Notes: generated from the sequence alone by a model not told the origin. Shown: positions 27,559 to 35,358, counted from the stretch's first letter. The stretch is 64,000 nucleotides of DNA from an uncultured Gemmatimonadales bacterium (GCA_963748815.1 CAVVKJ010000010.1:608001-672000); one strand, 5' to 3'. Made by a program: numbers and translations.

Positions 27559-28710
27559 ATGCCGTGTTGTTCGGGTCACTCAGCTGCCCGCTTTCGCGGC
27601 GCCACTGGCCTCGCCGCCGCGGCGCTGGTCCTGGGCGCGTGCGCCAGCGTCCCGACGCAGTCAGCCAGTATGCAGGCATCTCCCAACGTCACGGTCTCCG
27701 CCTCCAGGCTCCAGCTCCAGGTGTTCGAATTGGGACGCGCCGTCTCGGCGTTGATCGAGGAGGCGGCGGACAGTATCGAGGACTCGTCAACCGATCCGGT
27801 CGTCCGCCGGACCGCACTGCTGTGGAAAGTGTCGGGCATCCCTCTCGTCCAGGAGGCGGCGCTCCGCATTGATCCGCTGGTGGCCGGAGTCGATCTCGTG
27901 GCGCTGACGATGCAGCAGCTGGACTATTTCACGACCGGCGCAGGCCGTGACGCGTTCGGCCCTCAGCAGTTCATCGCCGTCGCGGCGGCGCGTGAATCCG
28001 AACGGCTGGCGATCGCGCTCGCCAAGGCGAGCGTGCGGAGCGGCACCTACCGGCCGCAGTTCGAGGCGAACGTCCGGCAGTGGGCGGCCGACCACCCGAT
28101 GCATGGCCCAACGCTCACGCGGGCCTCCGTCCTCAATTCGGAGTGGGAGGCGCTCGGCATCAGCACGGAATCACTGCAGGCCACCATCGCCAACGTCGAT
28201 CGAACGCTCGTGAACATCACCTACCGCCTGAGCTACCTGAATGAGACGCTGGCCGCGCAGGCGCGCTGGAACGCCGAGCTGGCGCTGGGTGACGTCCTCG
28301 TCGCACCCCAGAGCGAATCGATCTACTCCACCTTCACCTCGGCTCTCGGGTCGGTTGGCATGTTCGCCGACAGCGTACCGCTGCAGCAGGTGCTCGATCA
28401 GGAGCGGCTCGCGCTGATGGCGGATGTGGACCGCCAGCGCGTCCTCGCCTTCGAGGACGTCGCCGCCCAGGTCAGCATCCTGCGGGCCGCGCTGACCTCC
28501 GAGCGGGAAGCGCTCATGGCCGAGGTCGCCGAGGAGCGTGTGGCGATCTTTGCCTCCGCCGACACGCTCGCGGCACGCTCGATCATCCAGTCGGAGGCCG
28601 TGTTGCGGCGGCTGGTGCTGCAGATCGTCGCGGGAGCCCTGGTCGTGGTCCTGGCGCTGCTGGGGTGTGGAATGATCCTGATCAAGCGATGGAAGACAGC
28701 GACAGCCTAG
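27559..28710 (+). CDS. Hypothetical lipoprotein with helical body and C-terminal TM
   Basis: Lipobox LGAC; IEEAADSI motif; C-terminal hydrophobic anchor. Confidence 0.65.
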   Translation: MPCCSGHSAARFRGATGLAAAALVLGACASVPTQSASMQASPNVTVSASRLQLQVFELGRAVSALIEEAADSIEDSSTDPVVRRTALLWKVSGIPLVQEAALRIDPLVAGVDLVALTMQQLDYFTTGAGRDAFGPQQFIAVAAARESERLAIALAKASVRSGTYRPQFEANVRQWAADHPMHGPTLTRASVLNSEWEALGISTESLQATIANVDRTLVNITYRLSYLNETLAAQARWNAELALGDVLVAPQSESIYSTFTSALGSVGMFADSVPLQQVLDQERLALMADVDRQRVLAFEDVAAQVSILRAALTSEREALMAEVAEERVAIFASADTLAARSIIQSEAVLRRLVLQIVAGALVVVLALLGCGMILIKRWKTATA

Positions 28711-28845
28711 GGGCGGGACTCGAGCCGCCGGCCGAGGCCCAAAAGAAAGGCCCCCTTTCGGGGGCATAGCAGGGGCGGGACTCGACGCGAAGCGCGGGGC
28801 CCTGACTTCGGGGAGTGGAACGACCATAGCAGGGGCGGGACTCGA
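28709..28845. repeat. Three spaced copies of the tRNA-Met 3' end
   Basis: AGGGGCGGGACTCGA at 28709, 28771 and 28831; copies 2 and 3 share CATAGCAGGGGCGGGACTCGA. Confidence 0.85.
28741..28765 (-). terminator. Intrinsic terminator (probable original tRNA-Met terminator)
   Basis: Minus strand reads GCCCCC-GAAA-GGGGGC followed by CTTTCTTTT. Confidence 0.7.
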
Positions 28846-28870
28846 ACCCGCGACCCCGGCATTATGAGTG
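28826..28870. repeat. att site: displaced 3' half of tRNA-Met
   Basis: 45 bp identical to 35190-35234; spans the anticodon loop to the discriminator base. Confidence 0.95.
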
Positions 28871-29190
28871 ACAGATGGCCGGGGCACGAGTAACCCCGAC
28901 CTCCTCTCCATCCCATACAGAGTCCAACTCAAGTCCATCAGACCACACCAGCCATTCTTCAGCTGGTGGTTCAGGCGATCCCGGCACGAGTGCCGGGGCC
29001 GGATCGCGCAGTCGTACCGTTGAGCTGCGGCGCTGGAATGTGCGCGGCAAGCATGGCGAGAAGCCGCGCAGAAGCCCGTCAGAGCCACGGAACTCGGCTG
29101 ACGCACCGACACGGGCCGCGAAGGAGCCGCAGGCTCCCCGTGGGCCCGCAGGGCACACGGAAGCGAACTCCGAAGGAGAGAGCGTCGAGA

Positions 29191-29217
29191 CGGGGCCGAA
29201 GGCCCCGCCCCTTGATA
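29191..29217 (+). other. Putative double-strand origin (dso) of rolling-circle replication
   Basis: Hairpin CGGGGCC-GAA-GGCCCCG followed by CTTGATA, the pC194/phiX174-type nick motif, directly upstream of rep. Confidence 0.7.
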
Positions 29218-29282
29218 CGTTAGCAGAACTCGACCACAACCAATCTGCCAAGAGCAAGGAAAAGCTTGCCAAACGGGCCAAG

Positions 29283-30125
29283 ATGAAGAACATCACGGTC
29301 CCAATTGCCATCGGGCTTGCGGAACTCAGGACGCCTCTCGAGAAGAGCTATCGCAACACCTTCTACTGTGCCGGGCTGTTGGTCCAGGATAGGGATGGTA
29401 AGCTGCGGGGGCTATTTTGCGGCAATCGTTGGTGCTTGGTCTGTAGCCGGGTACGGAGTGCCAGGGGGATCGACAGATACATTCCGGTCATTTCCGCCTG
29501 GTCGGACCCGCAGTTCGTTACCCTGACCTTGCCCAATGTTCAAGCCGCTGAACTGGCCGCGACCATTGCCCAGATGCTCCGTGACATACTTGCAATTGGC
29601 AGAGCGATCAAGCGGACAGACAAACTGCCCTTGCAGGCGTTGCGGAAGTTGGAATGCACCTACAACGCACAAGTAGGATCCTATCACCCCCATTTTCATC
29701 TCGTGGTAGGGGGAAGAAAAGTCGCTGAGGCGATGGTTAGGAGATGGCTGGCGCTCCACCCTGATGCATCTCCCGCCGCACAAGATATCCGGCCATGCGA
29801 CCTGAACTCCATGAAGGAGATGTTCAAATACTTCACCAAACTACTTGCCAAGGACTCCGGTGCGGAAACCCGCCGTTCCGTTGCTCCGCTCCATGCGCTG
29901 GACGTGATCTTCACTGCGATAAAGGGGAAGCGCGTCTTTCAGCCGATGGGATTTAAGGTGAACGTCCCCCCGGCTCAGGACGACAACGCTGAAATCGGGC
30001 AACTGTCAGGTACCGTCTCACCAACGCGTCGGGGAGAAAAGGTGGCTTGGGAGTGGGTCCAGGGTCTACACGACTGGATAGACCTTGAGACAGGCGATGC
30101 GTTGTCCGGCTTCGAGGGAGTGTGA
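29283..30125 (+). CDS. rep: Rolling-circle replication initiator (Rep_1/pC194-like HUH endonuclease); frame is open from 28875, so the true start may be upstream
   Basis: CGNRWCLVC Zn motif; motif I FVTLTLPN; motif II YHPHFHLVV; motif III EMFKYFTK. Confidence 0.88.
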   Translation: MKNITVPIAIGLAELRTPLEKSYRNTFYCAGLLVQDRDGKLRGLFCGNRWCLVCSRVRSARGIDRYIPVISAWSDPQFVTLTLPNVQAAELAATIAQMLRDILAIGRAIKRTDKLPLQALRKLECTYNAQVGSYHPHFHLVVGGRKVAEAMVRRWLALHPDASPAAQDIRPCDLNSMKEMFKYFTKLLAKDSGAETRRSVAPLHALDVIFTAIKGKRVFQPMGFKVNVPPAQDDNAEIGQLSGTVSPTRRGEKVAWEWVQGLHDWIDLETGDALSGFEGV

Positions 30126-30205
30126 CTCGCGCTGCAGGCTTCCCAGCAGCCACTTCCGTATTGGCTACAACCTTGAGCCCCATCCATACGTTGCCGTGGA
30201 ACGCA

Positions 30206-30919
30206 TCATTTTTGGCGAAAGTGATCTTCGCGGTATTTTGAGAAGTAGTACAGTACTGATCGTTCCGCTATGTCCTTCATTACATCCGCCATTTCGGCAA
30301 CGGTCCACTTCTCCGGCCTGAAATAGAAACTGCCACGATTGAACTTTCCGGCCTCCTCATTGTGCAGATATGTCGTATTCAACTTGCCAAACATGGCCAT
30401 CGTACTGACTCGGTCCAGAATCGACGAGTCCGCTTCAAAATCGCAACCGTAGCCGAAGCACACGAAAGGGAAGATACTTTCGCGCATGAGTGCTGCTCGA
30501 AGCCCAACAAGGTTCTTCCCCAGACGCTCTATCGCGTTTCCTCTTGCCTGCTTCTGAAGCCCTTCCTTTTCGCGAAGATCGTTTGTTCCCTGGTTTTTTA
30601 CTTCAGCAATCAGGAGAGGGTACGACAATGAGTCGCCCGGCTTTCCTTTCATGTAGAGGAAACCACCATCTGGACGAATCGAACTCGTGTCGAAATGGTA
30701 GTGGAAGGTCACATCAGGGTAACTCTGCCTGAGCTCGGCAACGATGTTCTTTAGGTACCACTGACTTTCATGGACTAGGCCAATGCGCTGTCCGAACTTG
30801 GCGTCGAGATGTGCGATCACAATCGCCAATGCTCTCATGACATCAGACTCTTGCTTCTTCGATGTCGTATTGATGACCGTGCCGGCCCGCTGAGTTCTGA
30901 GTTGGTGCTTGCGCGCCAT
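30206..30919 (-). CDS. EcoRI-family type II restriction endonuclease
   Basis: SIRPDGG, IAEVKNQG and GNAIER parallel the EcoRI PD..EAK and NAIER motifs; RBS GGAGG. Confidence 0.85.
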   Translation of the reverse strand: MARKHQLRTQRAGTVINTTSKKQESDVMRALAIVIAHLDAKFGQRIGLVHESQWYLKNIVAELRQSYPDVTFHYHFDTSSIRPDGGFLYMKGKPGDSLSYPLLIAEVKNQGTNDLREKEGLQKQARGNAIERLGKNLVGLRAALMRESIFPFVCFGYGCDFEADSSILDRVSTMAMFGKLNTTYLHNEEAGKFNRGSFYFRPEKWTVAEMADVMKDIAERSVLYYFSKYREDHFRQK

Positions 30920-30923
30920 TCCC

Positions 30924-32108
30924 CTACCTCCGCTCCACCAAGAACAACTGCTCGGTGACATGGATTGAACGATTTGTAAAGTTCCTACTGCCCCTGAACG
31001 CGTTATAGCGAGTTTCGAGCACCTCCACCGTCCCGATTTCGCTGAGCATCGCCCTCATGGCTTCAGGTGAGATGAAGCCTTCATTGTTGAAGGAAATTAG
31101 TAGGTAGGGTGCATCGATTGAATGAAGCAAGCCCTCCAACAGTTTGGGCGACTTTGCCTTGACGTTGTAGCCGGATCGCCTCCAGTCCTGTGGGATACCG
31201 GACACCCGGCTGACTTGAGATGGTTCCTCATAAGCTACCAGCAGGTTGAGCATGAAATAATTTGAGCCGTACGGATGCTGGTTATACGGTGGGTCGATGT
31301 ATGCTAGATCGAGACCTTTAAGGAGGGGCGCCAACTCATTCGTGTCGCGTTGGAACACCTCATAATCACACTCGAAATTGCTGAGCACCGGCACATCGAG
31401 CTTGACCTCCCCCGTGATTCTGACGAGTGCGTCCGACCCACTACCCCCAAACTGGCCTATCTGCGTTTCACGATTCTTGTAGAAACCCTTGAATACGCCG
31501 GCAGTGTTGGCGTGAATTGAGGCACGGCTCAGGAGTGGGCCTAGGATAAGGTCCCTCATCTTCATCGGAGCTGAGTCAATCAGCCGCCGAAAGTTGTCGA
31601 GGCGACGCGCATTATCATTTGTGTAGAATACCCGGTCATCTTTGGTGATTGCCTCCTCATTCGCCGGTGAGTACAGGGTTTCAATAAACCCCTTCGGGAA
31701 AGGCTCGCTCAAGACGCGATCATTGAAGTCGTCGATCATTTCAGTCAGTGCAACTTGGTCGACCTCGCTTCGATTACTCAGGTAACAGCGCGATATGACC
31801 GCAGCGTAGTCCTCCATGTCGTTACACACTATGGACGAGGAGTGCGCCTTGAAATAGCGCGACACAACCCCAGACCCGCTAAACGCATCAAAGACGCGAA
31901 GCTTCGATTTTTTCAACCGATGCTTCACTCGCTCCACGGCAGTCCCGATCTGTCCGAGCAGGGCCCGCTTGTTGCCGATATAGGTCAACAGTTGGCGTGC
32001 CAGGTAGTCCGGATTCTCCGCACTTGAGTCCTGTGGCCACAGCACCGACTGTTGGCTTGAAATTGAAGCGTCGAGGATTCGGCGCATTTCGGCTGACGAC
32101 TCATCCAT
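30924..32108 (-). CDS. N6-adenine DNA methyltransferase (alpha class, D12-type)
   Basis: TYIGNKR, motif I DAFSGSGVVS, motif IV YIDPPYNQHPY. Confidence 0.9.
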   Translation of the reverse strand: MDESSAEMRRILDASISSQQSVLWPQDSSAENPDYLARQLLTYIGNKRALLGQIGTAVERVKHRLKKSKLRVFDAFSGSGVVSRYFKAHSSSIVCNDMEDYAAVISRCYLSNRSEVDQVALTEMIDDFNDRVLSEPFPKGFIETLYSPANEEAITKDDRVFYTNDNARRLDNFRRLIDSAPMKMRDLILGPLLSRASIHANTAGVFKGFYKNRETQIGQFGGSGSDALVRITGEVKLDVPVLSNFECDYEVFQRDTNELAPLLKGLDLAYIDPPYNQHPYGSNYFMLNLLVAYEEPSQVSRVSGIPQDWRRSGYNVKAKSPKLLEGLLHSIDAPYLLISFNNEGFISPEAMRAMLSEIGTVEVLETRYNAFRGSRNFTNRSIHVTEQLFLVERR

Positions 32109-32174
32109 CAATGACCCCTTGCATGCTATCAGATGCCATGGGTTGCTTGGTTCCACCGCATTCGAAAGGGCGCT

Positions 32175-32582
32175 TCAACCGACCACAGGTTGTCGGAGTT
32201 GCACCACCACATGCGCTGCCAATGCAGCGTAGGCTAGCGCCAAGAACACGAGCTTCAGGCGGAAGAGTCGATAGGGCCAGGTATCGAGGGAGGCTGGCTT
32301 GTGATACTCCCCTTCAATCGTGCCGGTCTCGGTATGTTGAGCTTTCTCTTGGGCCAGAAGCCAATTCCGCTGACCTACGGCAGCAAGCAGTGCCTGGGCC
32401 AAGTCGGAGCCGAAGAACAGGAATACGCTGAGAAGAGCCCAGAGTGCAGTTGGTGGAAACCTGCCATCTGCACTGCGAAAGATCCAACATATCGCCGCTG
32501 CGCCGAAGGCGAGTCGCCGAGTGAGCTCCGTGATGTCACGCGTATAATCTCGGTAATGGCCCCATGCCTCGGCGTTCTTCAT
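32175..32582 (-). CDS. Hypothetical 3-TM membrane protein
   Basis: 135-aa ORF with three hydrophobic segments, upstream of the MTase on the same strand. Confidence 0.7.
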   Translation of the reverse strand: MKNAEAWGHYRDYTRDITELTRRLAFGAAAICWIFRSADGRFPPTALWALLSVFLFFGSDLAQALLAAVGQRNWLLAQEKAQHTETGTIEGEYHKPASLDTWPYRLFRLKLVFLALAYAALAAHVVVQLRQPVVG

Positions 32583-32704
32583 GGCTTTGTTGGAGGAGTA
32601 GACCTCGTCCCTGGATTCCCCGTAGGTGCCGGTTTCCTGGGAGGAACCGATGGCGCAGGCGTGGTGGGCTTTGGCTGCTTGTCAATCGGGGCCGTATAAC
32701 TCAA
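32579..32704 (-). CDS. 41-aa proline-rich peptide (not in ORF track)
   Basis: GGGAGG then TTG start; (M)SYTAPIDKQPKPTTPAPSVPPRKPAPTGNPGTRSTPPTKP*; ATGA overlap with the next gene. Confidence 0.45.
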   Translation of the reverse strand: MSYTAPIDKQPKPTTPAPSVPPRKPAPTGNPGTRSTPPTKP

Positions 32705-32894
32705 TGGACACGCCCTCCCAGTTCCCAACGCATTGGTTCCCATCCGGCACGGCTCTTTGATCCAAAGTTCAACAATCCCTAGGCAGATCGCAAGTGCAAA
32801 TAAATGCGAGAGTTCCGAGGCTCAGCGACCTCGGGGAGGCCCATCGTCCGAGGGTCACCAACTTCGGCCAGAGTGTCCACCGAAAGACACGCTC

Positions 32895-32938
32895 TTGACA
32901 AGCTGAACACGCGGTTTAAGATATATTTAACCTTAAAC
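32895..32938 (+). promoter_or_regulatory. Sigma70-type promoter with overlapping inverted-repeat operator
   Basis: TTGACA-N16-TAAGAT; GTTTAAG (32914)-N11-CTTAAAC (32932). Confidence 0.65.
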
Positions 32939-32951
32939 AAAGCATAAGCCC

Positions 32952-33293
32952 ATGAGCTATTCCCAGCCGGACATGATCCGCGTCAGAGCGGCGATCGAAC
33001 GGGGACTGAAGGTGGAGTTCTGGTGGACCGGGCTTCCTGGCGAACGAGGAGCGAAAGTGGTCAAGGTCGATGAGCATGGCATGCGGTGGACGCTAGACAT
33101 AGAGGCTACGCACTGGGTCACTCAGAAGATTGCGGCAGGGCTGCTAGGAGTGAGTGTCGTCACAATCAACAAATGGGTCCGTGAGGGAGTATTCCCGAAC
33201 AAGAAGATCAGGCGTGGGGTGTCCGTGATTCCGATTCGAGAGGTGGAGAAACTCGCCAATTCGCGTGGCCTCTTCTTGCGAAGCAAACAATAG
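32952..33293 (+). CDS. Helix-turn-helix DNA-binding protein (MerR/Xis-like C-terminal HTH)
   Basis: VTQKIAAGLLGVSVVTINKWVREG motif. Confidence 0.75.
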   Translation: MSYSQPDMIRVRAAIERGLKVEFWWTGLPGERGAKVVKVDEHGMRWTLDIEATHWVTQKIAAGLLGVSVVTINKWVREGVFPNKKIRRGVSVIPIREVEKLANSRGLFLRSKQ

Positions 33294-33340
33294 TCATCAA
33301 CAGGCCTAAATGGACTACGGCCAGAAGGGAGGTGATATGA

Positions 33341-33478
33341 GTGCCGACGAAAACTGAGTTGGAAGCCCAAAACGATGAACTTCGCGAACGGCTGGAAGCA
33401 GCCCGTGAGATCATCGATGACGCCCTCGGTCTCGAAGATGAGGACGACGACGACGACGAAGACGAAGACGACGACTGA
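33341..33478 (+). CDS. 45-aa highly acidic small protein (not in ORF track)
   Basis: RBS GGGAGGTG, GTG start; MPTKTELEAQNDELRERLEAAREIIDDALGLEDEDDDDDEDEDDD*. Confidence 0.65.
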   Translation: MPTKTELEAQNDELRERLEAAREIIDDALGLEDEDDDDDEDEDDD

Positions 33479-33590
33479 ATACGACAACGGGCTGCAACCG
33501 CTTAGCCATGGTGGCTTCGCAATTGCAACCCGCTCAACCTGCTGAACCGAGACACTGCGCCAACAGTGCCTCGGAGGGTACTGATTACTT

Positions 33591-33812
33591 ATGCCTTCCA
33601 ATATGGATTCCATCGCCGTCCCTGACAAGGCCCAAGGGGCTCTCCTCTCAGTTCGGGACGCTGCTTCCTATCTGAAGATGTCCGAGGGATGGCTCTCACA
33701 GAGCGACATCCCCTTTGTTCGGCTTGGTCGCAGTCGGCGTTACCGTCTGGTCGACCTCGATTCGCACATCGAGCAAAATCTTTCCCACCGACCAATACGG
33801 GGGCCCCGATGA
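33591..33812 (+). CDS. xis: Excisionase-like HTH protein
   Basis: LLSVRDAASYLKMS..IPFVRLGRSRRYRLVDL motif; ATGA overlap with the integrase. Confidence 0.8.
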   Translation: MPSNMDSIAVPDKAQGALLSVRDAASYLKMSEGWLSQSDIPFVRLGRSRRYRLVDLDSHIEQNLSHRPIRGPR

Positions 33813-34915
33813 GCAGCATCTATGTGCGCGGCAAGACCTGGTACGTCGCTGTCCCTACACGATCTGGGAAGTGGACGAAGTGGTCGACGGGCAGCCGCGA
33901 CAAGGCGATGGCGCAGCGGATGGCCCGGATGATTGACGACTTCGGCCCGAAGGGACAACGCGCCTGGGTCTTCTTGGATGCCGTATCCACCGGCCAACTG
34001 CCAGTGGCAGCGTTGTATGACGCGTACTCGGCCCGCCAGCTCGACCAGCTGAAGGAGGAGCTGACCGATGTTGACCTGGAGCCATACGTGGACAAGTGGT
34101 TGAAGGCCATCGAGAGCAACGTGGCAGTCGACACGATCCAGCATTACGGGCTATATGCGCGCTCACTATTCCGAGAGGGTACCCGCTTTCCGAGGTCAGC
34201 GCTCCGACACGAGAGGATCGTCGAGTGGCTCGGATCACGAAAGGTGGGTCGCTCCACCAAGCGGAAGTACCACGCCGCGCTGAGCAGTTTCTGTGAACAC
34301 CTGAAGGGGATCGGTATCCTTCAGCGGAATCCGATGCGGGACGTGAAGGCACCGTCCCCTGCCCCGGCCCGAATGAGCTACTTGAACCAGACAGACGTGG
34401 AGCGATTGATCGCTGCCCAGGCGCATCCCTACAACGTCCTTTCTACGCTGGTCCATGGCACCGGTATGGAGCTTTCGGTGGCATTGGGACTCAAGAAACG
34501 GGACATCGACCCTGTCCGACGAGAGATCCGAGCCAAGGGCACTAAGACCAAGTATCGGGACCGGCACGCGACTGTCGTCGATTGGGCCTGGCCGACCATT
34601 GAGCGTCATGCCGCCTTGCTAACTCCCAATGCGCCGCTCTTTCCAGGGATCAATCGCTGGACAGCCAGCGACAAGCACCGTGAGGCGTGCCTCGCTCTTG
34701 GGCTGGAGAATTATCAGCTCAAGGACTCCAGGCACACCTACGCCGTGAGGGCCATCCGTGGAGGCGCATCCTTTGAGTTTGTGGCTCGGCAATTGGGCCA
34801 TGCGGACACGACCATGGCGGTGAAGGTGTATGGACGATTCACCCCAACGGACAGTGAAAGGACCGATTGGGAGGAGAACGCAAGAGCCCAAGATGCCGCC
34901 AGAGCGCAGGCGTAA
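33809..34915 (+). CDS. int: Tyrosine recombinase/integrase
   Basis: Core-binding region STKRKYHAALSSF..RNP; SRHTYA; QLGHADTTMAVKVY with catalytic Tyr; adjacent to att/tRNA. Confidence 0.9.
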   Translation: MSSIYVRGKTWYVAVPTRSGKWTKWSTGSRDKAMAQRMARMIDDFGPKGQRAWVFLDAVSTGQLPVAALYDAYSARQLDQLKEELTDVDLEPYVDKWLKAIESNVAVDTIQHYGLYARSLFREGTRFPRSALRHERIVEWLGSRKVGRSTKRKYHAALSSFCEHLKGIGILQRNPMRDVKAPSPAPARMSYLNQTDVERLIAAQAHPYNVLSTLVHGTGMELSVALGLKKRDIDPVRREIRAKGTKTKYRDRHATVVDWAWPTIERHAALLTPNAPLFPGINRWTASDKHREACLALGLENYQLKDSRHTYAVRAIRGGASFEFVARQLGHADTTMAVKVYGRFTPTDSERTDWEENARAQDAARAQA

Positions 34916-34954
34916 CCAACTTCCTCCCCGGAGTTTCCCTTCGCAATTAGTACG

Positions 34955-35033
34955 AAAAGTCCGTGGAAAAAGTCCGGTAATTGCCCGGCAAAAGTCCGTC
35001 TAGCGATTTTGAAAAGTCCGGTGAAAAAGTCCG
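34955..35033 (+). repeat. Five direct 9-bp repeats AAAAGTCCG
   Basis: Copies start at 34955, 34968, 34990, 35012 and 35025. Confidence 0.85.
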
Positions 35034-35120
35034 TCAGGGCACTATTCCCCGGTTTACCACGCAGTGAGGGCAGGATGCCGATACTCGCAAAGCTTTGCAA
35101 TTCTTCAGCTCTTGGTACAC

Positions 35121-35154
35121 AAAAAACGGAAGCCCCTTCAGACTTCGAAGGGGC
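35121..35154 (-). terminator. Intrinsic terminator downstream of tRNA-Met, inside the element
   Basis: Minus strand reads GCCCCTTC-N7-GAAGGGGC then TTCCGTTTTTT. Confidence 0.7.
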
Positions 35155-35190
35155 ATCTCGTAACTCTTTGGCAATCATGAACCTACACGA

Positions 35191-35264
35191 TAGCAGGGGC
35201 GGGACTCGAACCCGCGACCCCGGCATTATGAGTGCCGTGCTCTAACCACCTGAGCTACCCTGCC
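35191..35264 (-). tRNA. tRNA with CAT anticodon (probably elongator Met; Ile2 not excluded); CCA not encoded
   Basis: GGCAGGGTAGCTCAGGTGGTTAGAGCACGGCACTCATAATGCCGGGGTCGCGGGTTCGAGTCCCGCCCCTGCTA folds as a cloverleaf. Confidence 0.93.
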
Positions 35265-35358
35265 AACAACAACAACTTGGGACTGAGGACTGAGCGTACG
35301 GGCACGCCGCGGCGTGCCCCGTACAGCGCGGCAATCCTAGCCGCGCGCGAGCCGGATA

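Follow-up and report, generated by a model that had tools for sequence, protein, structure and literature searches.

Is the segment between positions 28826 and 35234 of this DNA a mobile element, and if so, of what kind? The segment lies in a stretch of 64,000 nt, hereafter the window, from an uncultured Gemmatimonadales bacterium (GCA_963748815.1 CAVVKJ010000010.1:608001-672000), whose genome assembly (G000) is 3.16 Mb in size and 86% complete. Our analysis indicates that it is probably a plasmid-like mobile element, integrated in a tRNA-Met gene and carrying a type II restriction-modification (R-M) system, which likely excises by means of its integrase (Int) and excisionase (Xis) and is predicted to replicate by the rolling-circle mode from a nick motif inside its own rep gene. 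The element has a defined anatomy, an empty counterpart site in a congener, and relatives of fixed layout whose cargo is dominated by defence genes and turns over; it is real and apparently intact.

Boundaries of the element and the empty site

An exact 45-bp direct repeat (28826-28870 = 35190-35234), which extends to 48 nt with one mismatch, bounds the element. The copies are spaced 6,364 nt apart, the element being about 6.4 kb in size with about 6.3 kb between the repeats, and the GC content is 52-62% within the element vs 64-76% in the flanks. It is present as a single copy in G000. That the host probably belongs to the Gemmatimonadota is also suggested by named records which share the tRNA-Met-ftsB neighbourhood and the closest Rep, and by the source names of Int homologues. 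In the congener G002, the same left gene and right flank are joined across a single 46-nt att, which is the empty attB site that an earlier reading made from the sequence alone (hereafter the sequence-only reading) had proposed to look for in relatives. That reading had placed 45-bp att repeats in tRNA-Met, and indeed the repeat is exact and its right copy lies inside tRNA-Met(CAT); the gene content it had listed for about 6.3 kb (int, xis, a helix-turn-helix (HTH) gene, an HUH Rep with an origin motif and an R-M pair) was borne out by family matches. Four features had escaped it: the 135-aa membrane protein, the conserved 45-aa acidic gene, the arm-type repeats that both arms carry, and Int's lack of the first catalytic arginine (Arg-I). 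The gene order is rep; a restriction endonuclease (REase) and a methyltransferase (MTase) gene on the opposite strand; the membrane protein gene; the HTH gene; the acidic gene; xis; and int. The sites at the two ends are as follows.

28826..28870, no strand: att repeat at the rep end, a duplicated 3' part of tRNA-Met
35190..35234, no strand: att repeat at the int end, equal to the 3' part of the intact tRNA
35189..35265, minus strand: tRNA-Met(CAT), the target gene, downstream of eno-ftsB
28955..28973, plus strand: left arm-type repeat pair, two TGGTWCA-like copies 12 nt apart, predicted Int arm-binding sites
35101..35119, plus strand: right arm-type repeat pair, its degenerate first copy being common to the left arm
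34954..35033, plus strand: AAAAGTCCG-type direct repeats 3' of int, possible accessory-factor sites
35132..35154, minus strand: terminator-like hairpin behind the tRNA, supplied by the element (consensus match alone)
28709..28825, no strand: host array of ~60-nt units outside the element (repeat families D1/D2)

Since the sequence identity among aligned elements ends at the anticodon loop of the att repeat, this loop is the likely crossover site of Int. The left arm-type pair is conserved in all six aligned elements. With at most two mismatches, the arm-pair pattern is found at 59 places in the 3.16-Mb genome, about 85 and 70 nt separating two of these from the att cores. Repeats similar to those behind int are also found at loci L041 and L029 and in a relic in genome G016.

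Same-genus loci were retrieved for 15 of 16 genomes, of which 14 contain the tRNA. A related element is present in G009, a relic consisting of the right arm and a C-terminal scrap of Rep in G016, and in one case the contig stops at the tRNA; for the remaining 11 loci there was no Int match within the up to 1.5 kb of sequence that they comprise. The unpublished genome G030 counts in the genome tally alone and supports none of the claims.

Each unit of the ~60-nt host array opens with a degenerate version of the 3' end of tRNA-Met, followed by a hairpin, and comparable arrays with varying copy number occur in same-genus loci (L002-L014). In G016, two array units separate the tRNA from the relic, a layout which suggests that units are added beside the tRNA or act as secondary att sites.

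Relatives with a common layout and different cargo

Among 401 genomes of the phylum, the Rep query matched 7, the Int query 26 and PF01446 (Rep_1) 13. In eight of the 13 PF01446 genomes (G000, G033, G078, G229, G259, G417, G418 and G419) Rep lies in a tRNA-sited element with an integrase; the G033 element is split over two contigs, and no far boundary was found for that of G229. The matches in the remaining five genomes lie beside a resolvase-like open reading frame (ORF), are broken by an insertion sequence, lie on a short contig, or are weak. With each stretch counted once, as named loci and handle loci are sometimes identical, complete or partial relatives were located at the same tRNA-Met (L041, L066, L031, L172, L063, L029/L040 and L065) and at tRNA-Leu, tRNA-Ile or tRNA-Pro (L058, L175, L056, L253, L254 and L059). 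The bounded elements with a full or partial Rep are 5.2-11.4 kb in size, plus a 1.9-kb remnant.

The tRNA-Met elements have a constant layout, in which a distance of about 0.4 kb separates the origin and rep from one att, and xis-int is at the other; the family layout can be written as att-origin-rep, swappable cargo, HTH-acidic-xis-int-att. The top Rep and Int homologues shared 13 coincident longest contigs, as matched by size, vs 1.6 in a jittered control, and one Rep-Int pair was confirmed by neighbouring accessions. Not all relatives carry the same parts: L056 and L253 have a different integrase, L254 and L059 have canonical integrases, and L172 and L175 have a Rep_1 of another subfamily.

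Recognisable and mostly different defence cargo was detected by PADLOC in 9 of the 12 other elements scanned, on a heuristic choice of ORFs in which 72 of 153 listed ORFs entered the main run. The cargo comprises an MmeI-like IIG R-M gene and PDC-S42 (L041), a type II MTase and a GmrSD-like gene (L066), PDC-S32/AbiJ and HNH (L063), Gabija (L031), R-M systems of BglII (L029), XhoI (L172) and XamI (L175) type, an MTase, TIR and PDC-M48B (L253), and PD-T4-9 genes (L059, from Adhaeribacter); none was recognised among the ORFs scanned in L056, L058 and L254. The co-occurrence of Rep and Int at tRNA loci with differing cargo, which the sequence-only reading had suggested looking for, was seen in multiple relatives.

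Further observations concern individual relatives. The two att copies of L066 (183-230 and 7947-7990) differ at several positions within the 3' half of the tRNA, which would fit an element acquired from a host whose tRNA-Met is not the same, and a second integrase of the same family lies just past the tRNA. At tRNA-Ile, L056 (16672-17913) and L253 (7744-8907) encode a distinct, divergent integrase paired with Rep_1; that of L056 has no NCBIfam or Pfam match and no recognisable TGxR box. Rep-less or Int-less tRNA-Met remnants with cargo other than defence genes are present in L171 (11396-16898, with an ABC permease) and L140 (8813-10704, with a sulfotransferase). Secreted or lipoprotein-like ORFs, one of them a subtilase, lie near or interrupt rep in L031 (10013-12113) and L172 (9383-11218). 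In L251 (10709-17388) the neighbours of a Rep_1 from another subfamily are a resolvase-like ORF and the methyltransferase of an R-M system; the 20 kb fetched contain no tRNA.

The Rep gene and its predicted origin

28875..30125 (open frame), plus strand: rep, Rep_1/pC194-family HUH initiator (PF01446, E 6e-12, above cut-off)
29123..29217, plus strand: predicted double-strand origin, three GC-rich hairpins then CTTGATA (fold z -3.2)

Residues H273 and H275 (HUH), E315, Y319 and K322 of Rep are invariant in 29 aligned sequences, and a Cys cluster and the ExxxY motif are also kept. The nick motif CTTGATA lies at 29211-29217; CTTGAT is described as the nick site of the pC194 family (PMC2440964). 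The motif was found upstream of 80 of the 90 rep matches. In 79 distinct loci, which are related and hence not independent and which were selected for CTTGATA, though not for its frame or for downstream conservation, the motif is near-invariant at all three codon positions, and this points to a constraint at the DNA level. In 76 of these loci it lies in the Rep frame, which is free of stops up to rep, and the spacings vary in steps of three. Typically, the low-GC loci have an ATG 8-34 codons upstream of the motif. The AlphaFold model of Rep is ordered from residue 123 (near 29241), ahead of the first ATG that follows the motif. Because the motif is in frame and the model is ordered before that ATG, the origin most likely lies inside the 5' end of rep, whose true start would be at or upstream of the nick motif. 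In the origin hairpins, several base pairs are altered on both sides among six elements, and a decayed copy pairs poorly.

More distant Rep relatives are often located on contigs of 2-7 kb with terminal repeats or tandem copies, which is consistent with free plasmids. One IMG/VR contig (L136), circular, 14,969 nt in length and with a 70-nt terminal repeat, encodes a Rep of the same subfamily (41% identity) with an in-frame CTTGATA; no integrase was detected at the two IMG/VR Rep loci. Such small-circle relatives favour an initiator over a dedicated relaxase, though Rep_1 can do both. Rep is less than 31% identical to the best 40 PLSDB matches listed. In a quick tree of 98 rows, the Reps of the tRNA-Met elements form one group of 24 rows (SH-aLRT 87) without any circular-contig row, and the other integrated Reps fall outside it; the tree has many open forks and long outgroups. 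We infer from these sequences that Rep_1 plasmids may have been captured repeatedly.

An integrase family with an acidic residue in place of Arg-I

33809..34915, plus strand: three-domain tyrosine integrase, 368 aa (Phage_integrase, E 6e-8)
33591..33812, plus strand: predicted excisionase, 73 aa (HTH_17, E 8e-7; TIGR01764 below cut-off)
33341..33478, plus strand: 45-aa acidic protein, a short helix and an Asp/Glu tail, between HTH and xis
32952..33293, plus strand: HTH_17-type regulator, 113 aa, found in related elements too
32895..32922, plus strand: sigma-70-like promoter match ahead of HTH-acidic-xis-int (10/12 consensus matches)

The structural model of Int (pLDDT 93.5) matches residues 13-356 of lambda Int, including the arm-binding domain, with Z 18.9 and a root-mean-square deviation of 8.9-9.3 over 316-318 residues, and this lambda-type arm-binding domain fits the paired TGGTWCA-like repeats on both arms. 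The catalytic Lys, Arg-II, His-III and Tyr are present within the lambda-Int fold. Two canonical features of tyrosine recombinases are lacking, namely Arg-I of the TGxRxxE box and His-II. Box I of Int reads TGMELSV, and its E221 stands, in an alignment free of gaps, opposite the catalytic Arg in XerA, Brujita Int and the host Xer proteins. The homologue search gave at least 179 matches; among the 120 listed, the Arg-I column is Glu in 118 and Asp in two, the His-II position is Arg in 52, Lys in 40 and His in 28, and K246, R250, R252, D306, R308, H331 and Y341 are invariant. An acidic residue at Arg-I was also observed in all seven IMG/VR integrases, three of which lie near a large terminase; in one of the seven, A and T occupy the columns of R250 and R252, and in another the R252 column is T, cases that may be alignment shifts or real exceptions.

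For Arg-I, a conservation of 91% among tyrosine recombinases is reported, and Cre can hardly do without it (PMC2943603). It is lost or shifted in IntCTnDOT, in which a downstream arginine substitutes, and in IntDes, as described in PMC8138268. Since the substitution by Glu or Asp is family-wide and R250 and R252 are invariant, the catalytic arginine has likely moved, with R250 or R252 taking over the Arg-I role by analogy to IntDOT. R250 is the first candidate and R252 the second, because R252 is aligned with the ordinary arginine of the Xer 'KER' motif.

The reading frame of xis overlaps the start of int. The HTH regulator has a weak small-terminase match (E 8e-6) that covers the HTH stretch alone. 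Homologues of the acidic protein occur at the same position in L066, L029, L171 and L174, and the Atlas search gave no usable lead for it; that it is a DNA mimic or an anti-repressor is speculation. Sigma-70-like sites numbered five in the region vs 2.7 expected.

The cargo genes

30206..30919, minus strand: EcoRI-family type II REase, 237 aa (PF02963, E 5e-11; PADLOC REase_II)
30924..32108 (alternative start 32156), minus strand: D12-class N6-adenine MTase (PF02086, E 2e-20; PADLOC MTase_II, E 7e-109)
32175..32582, minus strand: 135-aa hydrophobic membrane protein upstream of the MTase, without known family

The R-M pair consists of separate, adjacent REase and MTase genes with intact motifs, as in type II systems. 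The start of the REase is at 30919 instead of that of the longest ORF, and its PDGG..EVK motif aligns to EcoRI. At least 120 clusters of REase homologues were found at 76-83% identity, some of them named from other phyla, and the same REase-MTase pair is carried by a Paracoccus plasmid; the R-M cargo therefore travels widely.

RAATTY, proposed post hoc as the R-M site by analogy, was not retained: it occurs 0 times vs 4.8 expected, yet ranks outside the top 8 of 288 motifs, and it is also outside the top 10 motifs in five related loci. In the genome G000, AAGCTT, TACGTA, AACGTT, TAGCTA and AGCGCT occur at 0.38-0.49 of expectation, and GAATTC, at 1.06, is not avoided.

The 135-aa protein has no match in Pfam, PADLOC or PHROGs. 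It matched unnamed Atlas clusters at 0.95, and a Pycsar-TM-like match at 0.79 is a lead only.

Signs of recent movement, and points that weigh against the reading

Run X1, which comes from another study, contains seven contigs that span most of 28841-33284 with 96-99% identity, as well as one att contig whose flank differs and resembles a repeat unit of a congener. The X1 contigs of the Int region are 89-95% identical. The X1 coding differences are synonymous in 21 of 30 listed vs 24% of possible changes, which, like the high identity, speaks for recent activity; the 30 are a tool-chosen subset in which the int differences pool related elements. Runs X2 and X7 contain pieces of the host flanks plus short identical pieces of the element. 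The host flanks are covered little in X1, and the element is covered little in X2, X3, X4 and X6; such coverage holes prove nothing and are not taken as a sign of another host or of empty sites.

Several observations count against an integrated plasmid-like element that still excises and replicates. Neither an attP joint of 35189 to 28871 nor a free circle was present among the contig joints displayed for seven distinct runs of the 12 listed, 13 joints lying outside the display; as contigs break at the 45-nt repeat, this is evidence neither way. No RNA data set containing the element was listed. The three X1 differences listed for Rep (one synonymous, two Met/Ile) are uninformative, and selection on Rep is therefore not supported. 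The fold search with the Rep model gave no solved structure at E <= 0.001, with parvoviral and geminiviral HUH domains among the weak rows. No single-strand origin was identified, the folding of intergenic stretches having given nothing specific. Decayed relatives exist: Rep is truncated in L031 and L140, L063 and L058 have frameshifts, L171 lacks Rep, and G016 contains the relic. Rep and Int need not occur together: of the 26 genomes with an Int match, most showed no Rep in the stretch fetched.

Transfer genes, alternative explanations and proposed mechanism

The eight element proteins gave no match to a relaxase, type IV secretion system (T4SS) or capsid family in Pfam, PHROGs and NCBIfam, and none to a canonical MOB family, TcpA, an FtsK-SpoIIIE transfer protein or a primase, the replication gene being Rep_1; the one full FtsK match of the host is on contig C14. 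The absence of relaxase, T4SS, capsid and terminase genes, as asserted in the sequence-only reading, thus holds, the sole terminase-like match being the weak one over the HTH stretch.

The best surviving alternative considers the element as an integrative mobilizable element (IME), in which Rep_1 would be mainly a relaxase, the origin would be an oriT and a helper conjugation system would move it. Rep_1 initiators of pC194, pBS42 and pHP13 are indeed reported to serve as relaxases for ICEBs1 (PMC5714925, PMC5704250), relaxases that resemble rolling-circle replication (RCR) initiators are described in 118 of 144 streptococcal IMEs (PMC5704250), and VirB4, detected in 5 of 301 genomes of the phylum, offers helper potential. 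However, the known cases need the coupling protein TcpA (PMC5704250), which the element does not encode; VirB4 and the type IV coupling protein (T4CP) were not found in the 86%-complete G000; and the Rep relatives appear as the replication gene of small circles. We consider this explanation unlikely, and a relaxase role is compatible with a plasmid-like element as a second function of Rep.

The sequence-only reading had left the choice between an integrative RCR plasmid and a satellite-like defence element. The relatives and their cargo support the plasmid-like part. As a minimalist phage satellite, the element would be induced and packaged by a specific helper phage like the PICMIs, to which it bears a resemblance in size and defence cargo (PMC10803314), and its integrase family also occurs in tailed phages. 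Against this, there is no primase and no fis site; no helper and no element-type IMG/VR match emerged, Int as a single query giving no match and the att-plus-arm junction pattern 0 matches in IMG/VR, and the two IMG/VR Rep loci having no integrase match; and Terminase_6N and Zot went undetected in the host genome, which is incomplete. The satellite explanation is accordingly quite improbable. Least probable is a grounded island, held in place by R-M addiction with an integrase dead from the loss of Arg-I, since, for all that most substitutions of Cre Arg173 are reported to abolish activity (PMC2943603) and that decayed relatives exist, the substitution is family-wide with K246, R250, R252, R308, H331 and Y341 invariant and recurs in phage integrases, neither the att sites nor the arm repeats are damaged, the run of another study contains a copy with 96-99% identity, and IntCTnDOT provides a precedent for a relocated arginine (PMC8138268).

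For the integrated plasmid-like element, we propose the following mechanism. Int would recombine at the anticodon loop using the arm sites on both arms, with Xis directing excision; E221 would stand in for Arg-I, and an invariant downstream arginine (R250 first, R252 second) would do its job. Rep would nick CTTGATA and copy the circle, allowing survival through division and transfer, and reintegration would restore the tRNA and supply its terminator. The cargo would protect against phages and may punish loss by addiction. Having no transfer genes, the element would move passively between cells. As a guess, transduction by phages comes first, at somewhat under an even chance, a rare conjugative helper with Rep as relaxase comes well behind, and DNA uptake or vesicles follow closely; we lean to transduction because few genomes of the phylum have VirB4 and it was not detected in G000, an incomplete assembly.

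A more far-reaching version, to which we give slightly less than even confidence, is that the element is the type member of an undescribed Gemmatimonadota family of integrative rolling-circle defence shuttles. Such a family would have arisen as an integrase clade shared with phages, its active site rewired (Glu for Arg-I, a beta2-beta3 loop arginine being catalytic), repeatedly captured small Rep_1 plasmids, and its cargo slot would be a hotspot for new anti-phage genes, e.g. that of the 135-aa membrane protein.

Comparison with known systems

The integrative and conjugative elements of actinomycetes (AICEs) of pSAM2 type, as described in PMC2440964, resemble the element in tRNA integration, Int plus Xis, a rolling-circle Rep and the CTTGAT nick motif. 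The element differs in having no FtsK/Tra, a Rep_1 instead of RepSA or RepAM, a smaller size and a defence cargo. The streptococcal non-canonical IMEs (PMC5704250, PMC5357655) are alike in the integrase/excision module, an RCR-type initiator, the lack of T4SS and sometimes a type II R-M system, and the element, like an IME, has an integration and excision module of its own with att repeats (int, xis, the 45-bp repeats and the empty site of G002). The IME relaxase families listed in these sources are MobT, Rep_2, PHA00330 and Viral_Rep, with Rep_1 discussed there for plasmids only; the element differs further in having no TcpA and a Gram-negative host, and the mobilisation role of its Rep_1 is putative.

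Integrated pCRESS plasmids are likewise HUH-Rep plasmids inserted site-specifically between att repeats, without virion genes, whereas their Reps are described as having a helicase domain (PMC6668415) and the Rep of the element is a Rep_1 domain alone. The plasmids of the pC194/pUB110 family (PF01446) share Rep_1 with its HUH and catalytic Tyr motifs and CTTGATA with hairpins; here, in contrast, the motif lies inside the rep frame, vs 205-254 nt upstream of the annotated rep in one staphylococcal plasmid, and Rep is coupled to an integrase. PICMI satellites are similar in their ~6 kb size, minimal core and defence hotspot including R-M, but they are stated to require int, alpA and a primase and to sit at fis (PMC10803314), whereas the element has an HUH Rep and lies in tRNA-Met beside ftsB-eno. 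IntCTnDOT and IntDes, known according to PMC8138268 from Bacteroides-type elements (CTnDOT, NBU1/2) and Desulfovibrio, are also integrases with an arm-binding domain in which the first catalytic arginine is lost or shifted; compared by description only, Int differs in having an acidic residue there and two invariant arginines after the Lys.

If our reading is true, a phylum from which few mobile elements have been described gains a compact Int-att-Rep module, a potential vector; the cargo slot, with its many defence genes, unnamed ones included, becomes a place for discovery; and one more simple case becomes available for testing the relocation of the catalytic arginine in tyrosine recombinases. 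How integrative elements with a replication initiator and without transfer genes spread between cells would also become testable.

In the literature searched, which left subscription journals largely outside it, no description of this element family or its integrase signature was found. The suggestion of an undescribed family in the sequence-only reading stands in so far as no named family emerged there, while the general architecture is less new than was implied: IMEs with RCR initiators and integrated pCRESS plasmids (PMC6668415) are already known. In its workings the element resembles an AICE that lacks Tra, or an IME equipped with an RCR initiator, and belongs to neither the AICEs nor the PICMIs; its rewired integrase site and its defence cargo slot are the parts worth pursuing.

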